This document shows, in pieces, positions 8,612 to 10,127 of a stretch of 10,127 bases of DNA. Position 1 is the first letter of the stretch, and every line of letters begins with the position of its first letter. Source of the stretch: a virus. The stretch lies in UHGV virus genome UHGV-0213869, one strand, 5' to 3'. The notes under the pieces are model-generated. The model had not been told where the DNA came from. It searched no databases and saw only the letters and a list, made by a program, of their open reading frames with translations. The translations under genes and the position numbers were made by a program.

Positions 8612-9943
8612 TTAAACGCTCGCTACATTATACCAGGTGCCATTTATATACTTTTGGACGGGTCTGTAATAAACACCCGCTATATTATCGGCAGAGTTGG
8701 AACCTGTATCCTGAACATTAATACCAGACAATACATGACCTGATGGGCACTGGAAATTCCATGTTTGCCAGTTGTTCACTCCATAATATTGCTGTGAACC
8801 AAGTCGAACATCTTTCACATATCTGGAATCAAAATTGCCATAGTTGCCGGGAATAACTTGCGAACCACAAAGCCAGTTACCGTTATTATCCATGTATGCC
8901 TGACCATCGGTGCCATTGGCTGTCCTTGAGTTATTAATCATGTAGATGCCAAATTGCTTATTTCCCAGACCGCCAATCATAAATTTGCGGTCGGCATGGT
9001 CCTGACGGAGCAAAGCCTGAGCACCATCAGTGGATACCGCATTACGTCCAAAAATAACATTCTGGTCACGCATATGAATCCACATGCCTGTGCTGCTGTT
9101 AATTGCAAGGCGGTTTGCGTACACCCATGCGTTAGTTGTTATATCTCCTGTAACATCCAGAGCGTGCCCCATAGTTATGCGACCAGTTCTGAGATTCAAC
9201 GAAAAGGGGCGTAGTGGCCCGATATCACCATTTTCCCCCTCATTCTCTCGTGTGGGGATAATATGCAGGCATTCTTCAGAACGGCGAAAAATAGCACCAA
9301 AGGATGAATTAAAGATTCTCAGTGCATTGACTGTCGATATTTTTACTTCACTGCTGAAAAGGGCTTTAACAAGGACAGACAAAGCATCCCATTTAAGATT
9401 CATCAGGTCTTTTGTTGTGGTGCCCTGACGGCTTCTCCATTTGAAATATTCATTGCCGTTGTCGCCTGTTTCAAACCACATGTATGAATCAGTGTCACCA
9501 TCGGCATCATTTTTAAATCCAATCTTCGCCCAGTCAGTATTTCGAATCCAGGCAAGGATTGAGTCGTTTTCAAAAGTAAGTCCACCGGACAAGGTATCGC
9601 CATTTTTTTGCACGGCGTTCCCGGCTCGGTTTACCGTTTCCTGTAAACCGAGATATTCGATAACGGCGGCAACGGTCGATTTAGCCAGAATATCCCGCCC
9701 GACTTTTGTCAGGGTCGCCAGGCTGGCAACATCATTCCCCGTAAAATACGGAAACCTGTCTGCCGCAGTAGCAAGCCCCGCCAGCGCCGTCAAAGTGGCA
9801 TCTTTCGGTTGCTTACCCGCAAGCGCATTAGTCATGGTGGTAGCAAAATTCGGGTCATTGCCCAGCGCCGCCGCCAGCTCGTTCAGCGTATTCAGTGCGT
9901 CAGGCGACGAGTCTACAAGGGCGGCAATCGCGGCCATAACGAA
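8612..9943 (-). CDS. H: Tail fiber protein H (P2 gpH-like), C-terminal two thirds only; the frame is closed by a stop at 9953-9955 just upstream, so the N-terminal domain is missing on this strand
   Basis: Translation ..[80 protein letters not shown]...[17 protein letters not shown] matches P2 gpH from about residue 300 to the C-terminus; the C-terminal receptor-binding part is divergent. Confidence 0.88.
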
Positions 9944-10127
9944 ATTACTCAGTTAAGCAATGCGACCAACAGCACGTCTGAAACACTGGCCGCAACGCCG
10001 AAAGCGGTTAAGGCCGCATATGACCTTGCTAACGGGAAATATACCGCACAGGACGCTACCACAGCGCGAAAAGGTCTTGTCCAGCTAAGTAGTGCGACCA
10101 ACAGCATGTCTGAAACGCTCGCCGCAA
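9944..10127 (+). pseudogene. H: Fragment of tail fiber gene H (repeat region, about residues 195-250) encoded on the plus strand, opposite to the H C-terminal part; runs off the window
   Basis: Plus-strand translation TQLSNATNSTSETLAATPKAVKAAYDLANGKYTAQDATTARKGLVQLSSATNSMSETLAA matches the tandem SSATNSTSETLAATPKAVK repeats that precede FVMAAIAAL in P2 gpH. Confidence 0.75.
9950..10127 (+). repeat. Intragenic direct repeat of tail fiber H: units of about 46 bp at 9950-9995 and 10082-10127, period about 132 bp
   Basis: Both units encode Q-L-S-(N/S)-A-T-N-S-(T/M)-S-E-T-L-A-A with about 80% nucleotide identity. Confidence 0.7.

Follow-up and report, generated by a model that had tools for sequence, protein, structure and literature searches.

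The DNA analyzed here, a 10,127-nt stretch of the virus genome UHGV-0213869 (the window), carries the tail module of a P2-like (Peduovirus) prophage on its minus strand, as judged from its open reading frames, their Pfam domains, and the P2 map. The gene order is D-U-T-E-FII-FI-cargo-G-H, the same as in the records of the A3024 prophage, R18C, and P2. BLAST comparison with P2, R18C, and the A3024 prophage locus (L003) assigned all of the window DNA to P2 late genes and one FRG cargo gene. The closest relatives are the prophages of Escherichia coli A3024 (NZ_CP191562) and S1-ZIM-01-A (NZ_CP145671), both of which matched positions 3300 to 9940 over the full length at about 100% identity. In the intact, collinear A3024 prophage, H encodes a protein of 724 amino acids (WP_032139880.1) and is preceded upstream by I, J, W, and V; gene I lies outside the window.

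The tail fiber assembly gene G is intact (8083 to 8610, minus strand; Pfam Caudo_TAP and a match to P2). It is present in a single copy in the window and adjoins the 3' side of H on the same strand. The H gene itself is broken into two pieces on opposite strands, which share 96 to 100% nucleotide identity with H of P2, R18C, and A3024. With this identity and with G next to it, the broken gene is a P2 gpH-type tail fiber gene. H is collinear in A3024, R18C, and P2, and both pieces in the window derive from that gene, as the comparison with related prophages that had been proposed earlier now shows.

The break in H was placed by BLAST against P2 (NC_001895), R18C, and L003. The original prediction located it at about 9943; the break is real, and its base-level position is between 9944 and 9945. 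The C-terminal two thirds of H occupy positions 8612 to 9944 on the minus strand, are collinear from H nucleotide 843 to the stop codon, and contain the Pfam domain Gp34_trimer. The collinear minus-strand match (window 9362/3240 to 9944) ends at P2 position 13576, which is L003 position 14645 and H nucleotide 843, the third base of codon 281. A collinear C-terminal part had thus been recognized correctly, with its start in P2 gpH at residue 282 instead of about 300. The callable open reading frame on this strand (8612 to 9937) encodes 441 amino acids beginning with M284 (..FVMAAIAAL), and it is closed upstream by a stop codon, as predicted, namely the TAA at 9955 to 9953.

At the head-to-head junction (9944 to 9945), H nucleotide 843 is joined to H nucleotide 527 on the opposite strand, which corresponds to L003 positions 14645 and 14961 and to an offset of 316 nt. 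The inverted piece comprises H nucleotides 527 to 709 (codons 176 to 236), lies on the plus strand at 9945 to 10127, and continues past the window end. It corresponds to P2 positions 13260 to 13442 and L003 positions 14961 to 14779. All 183 of its 183 nucleotides are identical to L003 (E = 4e-92), which excludes a chance match. Its plus-strand frame reads TQLSNATNSTSETLAATPKAVKAAYDLANGKYTAQDATTARKGLVQLSSATNSMSETLAA and spans two copies of a 132-nt (44-amino-acid) SSATNS..SETLAA repeat. These repeats on the opposite strand had been noticed before; the inverted piece begins at 9945, one base later than was thought, and it lies upstream in gpH by 45 to 105 residues, a refinement of the 50 to 100 residues first estimated. 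The junction is blunt, with 0 nt of microhomology: neither the collinear continuation (GCCGTG..) nor the sequence just before the joined piece in the gene (..AAGGTT) has anything in common with the observed sequence. The search for an inverted repeat flanking the break found none within the window, in agreement with the earlier reading.

As written, H lacks its N-terminal, baseplate-proximal part, as had been stated. Residues 1 to 175 are outside the window, residues 176 to 236 are on the wrong strand, and residues 237 to 280 are missing; H nucleotides 1 to 526 and 710 to 842 are both outside the window. The join is out of frame, with a stop codon upstream of M284. A functional fiber cannot be made from this gene, which has no baseplate-binding N terminus, and nothing regulates the arrangement. 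A plus-strand frame that stays open from 9647 through the junction is a meaningless fusion of antisense H with sense H. The tandem 132-nt repeats of H are visible as two direct copies, at 9950 to 9995 and 10082 to 10127, with 87% identity. In the second copy, the conserved part stops exactly at the last base of the window, and the position of the window end within an H repeat would fit a contig that ends inside a repeat.

The rearrangement of T and D, to which the H break had been likened, was found by BLAST and by an inverted-repeat search as inverted blocks in both genes. In total, the window contains four junctions, and its path on L003 runs from 5399 to 4904, 5248 to 7668, 7963 to 7636, 7941 to 14645, and 14961 to 14779. 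Each junction is a U-turn, at which the sequence follows one strand, skips about 300 to 345 nt, and turns back along the other. The offset and microhomology are 344 nt and 3 nt at junction D (494 to 496), 295 nt and 1 nt at junction T1 (2914), 305 nt and 0 nt at junction T2 (between 3238 and 3239), and 316 nt and 0 nt at junction H (between 9944 and 9945).

The inverted block in gene D lies on the plus strand at 1 to 496 (L003 5399 to 4904), reaches the left end of the window, and is joined at 494 to 496 to collinear D, U, and T. It creates a 152-nt inverted duplication (1 to 152 and 494 to 645) that is 98% complementary. The inverted block in the tape-measure gene T lies on the plus strand at 2914 to 3238 (L003 7963 to 7636) and is about 325 nt long. 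Inverted duplicates of both ends are present in the flanks, as a 33-nt pair (2882 to 2914 and 3209 to 3241) and a 23-nt pair (2914 to 2936 and 3240 to 3262). Written on L003 coordinates, the structure is L[..7668] + rc(L[7636..7963]) + L[7941..], a DUP-INV-DUP arrangement. The rearrangement leaves truncated open reading frames of 111 amino acids in D and of 533 and 199 amino acids in T.

The end duplications in T are single-copy in the collinear L003, indicating that they are products of the rearrangement and not older inverted repeats. Homologous recombination between inverted repeats in T was ruled out on the same ground, with 2882 to 2936 and 3209 to 3262 being single-copy in L003. A de Bruijn mis-join through an inverted repeat was also ruled out, as the flanks overlap by only 0 to 3 nt at the junctions. 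The duplicated ends argue against a reciprocal site-specific or homologous inversion; two successive strand switches by a polymerase would give them. The DUP-INV-DUP class has been described chiefly for large eukaryotic rearrangements. The T block has exactly the anatomy of a replicative double template switch of this class (fork stalling and template switching). For H, the window contains only a first turn. Were the H block to follow the pattern of T, residues 237 to 280 would be expected just past the window end on the plus strand.

Compared with L003, the window has 20 substitutions, all of which are located in three short patches; elsewhere, the identity is 100%. The substitutions are at 390 to 473 and 509 to 521, flanking the D junction, at 3216 to 3335, flanking T2, and at 1707 and 1710, and every one of them matches the allele of phage P2 itself. 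The nearest informative sites bound the patch across the D junction (390 to 521) to about 130 to 356 nt and the patch across the right-hand T junction (3216 to 3335) to about 120 to 349 nt. The patch at 1707 to 1710 is away from any junction, which suggests that part of the mosaicism is ordinary phage recombination. The T1 and H junctions are on pure A3024-type sequence, and the two ends of the single T block therefore have different lineage backgrounds. Judged from these alleles, the patches point to a second P2-like template that may have contributed DNA around some of the junctions. Such patches are easier to picture as the result of in vitro switching, or of an assembler threading through a mixed sample, than of an ordinary chromosomal inversion.

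The junctions were sought in other genomes with junction-spanning queries against 5,426 complete E. coli genomes, and a junction was counted as spanned if one place covered 80% of the query. The three queries matched 1,656, 1,582, and 1,594 genomes, and the junction was spanned in none of these. For H, whose DNA is carried by the 1,656 genomes, the junction was likewise spanned in none of the 70 phage records and none of the 54 plasmids with this DNA. A natural variant of H was thus ruled out, no complete E. coli genome, phage record, or plasmid spanning the junction. By exact match, the 38-mer at the H junction was absent from 185,579 GTDB species-representative genomes, from IMG/VR, and from JGI metagenomes. 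The T1 junction string (36- to 38-mer) was absent from the same three collections, and the D junction string (36- to 38-mer) was absent from IMG/VR, the sole collection scanned for D. In an exact-protein look-up in a collection of 153 billion genes, the truncated T (533 and 199 amino acids) and D (111 amino acids) products had no record.

The 441-amino-acid H product was recorded once, on a metagenome contig from ENA (ERZ15610526 NODE_19094; L004). This contig has the 441-amino-acid reading frame because the gene caller starts at M284. It does not contain the H junction of the window: the sequence is collinear for 49 nt further and is then joined to gene J. At the other end of the contig, the region upstream of FI is joined to gene D. 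Positions 1 to 3974 of L004 form a patchwork of J (L003 16229 to 16079), mid-gene H through FRG (14694 to 10949), and D (4933 to 4836). Both joins are in direct orientation with little homology, and the join between J and H is about 50 nt from the H breakpoint of the window. L004 could be a decayed remnant that kept the cargo gene, or it could be another chimera.

The blunt U-turns, the duplicated ends, the patches, and the uniqueness of the junctions together shift the weight toward an artifactual chimera, an outcome that the original prediction had entertained only as a possible refutation. We consider the chances somewhat better than even that the H break is an unprogrammed join in a chimera formed during amplification or assembly, in vitro or in silico. 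Strands or templates would have been switched outside the cell, as in the chimeras of strand-displacement amplification or in foldback library fragments, or an assembler would have stitched chimeric fragments together. The sample would have held two P2-like lineages, one A3024-like and one P2-like, and two successive turns in T would have produced the inverted block of about 325 nt with both ends duplicated. At all four junctions, nearby segments of the same locus are joined in inverted orientation without a recombination site. Such joins, along with end duplications, several events per 10 kb, and patches from a second template, argue for switching by a displacing polymerase.

In multiple displacement amplification (MDA), 85% of chimeras are inverted joins, mostly of segments less than 10 kb apart (Lasken and Stockwell 2007, PMC1855051), so that inverted joins of nearby segments are the dominant chimera type. 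As with the junctions of the window, several such chimeras fall within 10 kb, and none involves a recombination site (PMC1855051). The complementarity at the junctions is a point of difference. Of the proximal inverted chimeras from MDA, 93.5% show 2 nt or more of junction complementarity (PMC1855051), whereas the junctions in the window have 3, 1, 0, and 0 nt, and only one of the four reaches that value.

Several other features are consistent with a chimeric origin. The offsets (344, 295, 305, and 316 nt) and the low microhomology are similar at the four junctions, and the inverted blocks have duplicated ends. The backbone is 100% identical to L003, which would require all three disruptions of essential genes to be of very recent date. 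The P2-allele patches span two of the junctions, and their possible lengths of about 120 to 356 nt are of the order of a sequencing fragment. T1 and T2 are on different lineage backgrounds. The junctions are spanned in no E. coli genome, phage, or plasmid with this DNA, and the exact strings and truncated reading frames are off record in the collections searched. The H and D junctions are also close to the ends of the window, at 183 nt and 496 nt, respectively. Besides the low complementarity, three observations weigh against a chimera. The patch at 1707 to 1710 is off-junction; L004, which is of the same lineage, contains two homology-poor deletion joins, so that rearranged remnants could really exist; and a consensus assembly normally avoids chimeric reads in favor of the true path.

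The main alternative, possible though rather doubtful, is that the window is a real private rearrangement of a defective P2-like prophage, in which the break in H would be a true but nonfunctional lesion. Template switching during replication, or end joining, would have flipped blocks of about 300 to 500 nt in D, T, and H and thereby killed the tail genes. The two T junctions are within 22 to 33 nt of the ends of one block, which fits a single double switch better than two chimeric reads. The window contains no Ns and no random errors. The homology-poor joins of L004 (J to H, and the region upstream of FI to D) are as expected of decaying remnants that keep the cargo gene. Against this, three unusual independent lesions would be needed in a prophage that is otherwise 100% identical to an intact one, and none of the approximately 1,600 genomes with this prophage type has any of the junctions. 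Patches of a second lineage lie exactly on two of the junctions. Prophage decay proceeds mostly by IS insertions and deletions, not by small inversions, and E. coli is not known to have canonical nonhomologous end joining. Should the junctions be real, they would amount to several small DUP-INV-DUP rearrangements clustered, unusually, in one bacterial prophage, with a bearing on mechanisms of prophage decay; even then, no functional system is formed.

It is improbable, in our estimation, that all four U-turns are real and have one cause in vivo, namely, two co-resident P2-like genomes that replicated with repeated strand and template switches. Inverted blocks of about 300 nt with duplicated ends, and short patches from the other phage, would then have been written into essential tail genes, a previously undescribed and fast way of scrambling and inactivating a prophage in which the FRG cargo gene is kept. 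We give equally little credence to the idea that the window is not natural, having been edited, simulated, or generated by a model from A3024-like and P2-like sequences. None of the collections searched contains the window, its junction strings, or its truncated reading frames, although the backbone is 100% identical to public genomes, and switches to canonical P2 alleles accompany two of the strand flips. There is, however, no positive support for such an origin: all variant bases are natural alleles, and many real assemblies are outside these collections.

The reading with the poorest survival is a regulated invertible segment. The switches of Mu, P1, and e14 bring in alternative C-terminal fiber parts, each with its own assembly gene. 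In the window, the flipped piece is proximal to the N terminus, and the C terminus and the single G are fixed, which upholds the earlier statement that a constant N-terminal part reading into alternative C-terminal segments is not seen. Tail fiber genes are classic targets of inversion switches, and an invertase-driven fiber switch consists of a serine recombinase gene and an inverted pair of crossover sites bounding a segment of 1.8 to 4.2 kb (PMC12529663). The block in H is about 316 nt in comparison with this range (PMC12529663). No recombinase domain was detected by Pfam in the 10 main open reading frames of the window, and no unassigned stretch is large enough to encode one. Nor is a recombinase gene annotated anywhere in the intact A3024 prophage, and the earlier remark that no invertase gene is nearby thus holds for both. 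No e14-type repeat was found in the window, nor was a shufflon indicated, with no family of short inverted repeats and no integrase or recombinase domain within the window.

The window does contain a single 26-mer resembling gix and hix sites, TTCCTGTAAACCGAGATATTCGATAA, inside H at 9638 to 9663 on the plus strand (L003 14339 to 14364), which was detected with a degenerate Gin/Hin-type consensus. It is the only match to the consensus in the window, where 0.01 is expected by chance. The site is 281 nt from the H break and has no inverted partner, so that no pair of crossover sites bounds the inverted segment and the one site present lies off the break. Across 22.6 kb of the collinear A3024 relative, this site is again the only one. 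The stretch that holds the 26-mer (9500 to 9944) is 100% identical to A3024 and R18C and 99.3% identical to the noninverting P2, the three mismatches to which are at 9793 to 9797. The 26-mer looks like a fossil of a Mu/P1-type fiber crossover site in a phage without an invertase, and not like an active site. It is present in P2 as well, and P2 H is presumed from this sequence to carry such a fossil. A perfect 10-nt inverted repeat (9625 to 9634 and 9643 to 9652) lies beside the 26-mer.

The likeness to the Din-family switches (Mu G/Gin, P1 C/Cin, and e14 P/Pin) thus consists of an inverted part in a tail fiber gene and one gix-like 26-mer. Unlike these switches, the window has no invertase, no inverted pair of sites, and no second assembly gene; its break is off the site; and it is the N-proximal part that is flipped, not one of alternative C termini. 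A real switch would leave both orientations in sequence collections, and the absence of the flipped state from all of the 1,656 E. coli genomes, 70 phage records, and 54 plasmids counts against one. A switch of the Gin/Cin/Pin type, of a shufflon-like type, or of a new type acting on the N-terminal repeats of H would have to keep its second site, together with its recombinase, past the right-hand window end, outside the view, and with a junction sequence unlike a crossover site, an out-of-frame join that yields no alternative fiber, and breaks of identical appearance in T and D, neither of which is a switch target, pointing to one common nonspecific cause, we find such a switch hardly credible. 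The original judgment that the H break is a rearrangement of the same type as those in T and D, and not a regulated switch, is therefore sustained by four similar blunt U-turns without a recombinase or a site pair. An inverted piece of a tail fiber gene invites the interpretation of a host range switch, and every defining feature of a switch fails here. What the window contains is best regarded as a well-known P2-type tail module in a chimeric or damaged copy.

The cargo gene of the module encodes an FRG-domain protein (PF08867) of 444 amino acids (6518 to 7852, plus strand), which occupies the Z/fun "moron" slot of P2 between G and FI. The FRG gene is in this P2-type slot in 2 of the 5,426 complete E. 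coli genomes. As two unrelated prophage backbones carry this cargo, the FRG gene seems to be a mobile accessory gene, possibly one related to defense. An identical FRG protein is very widespread, with 2,907 blocks of the gene collection listing it, and in the ten longest contexts, it is encoded in a lambdoid (Rac/Qin-like) prophage, between hok/Rem and DUF977/YdaT/Cro/cI.
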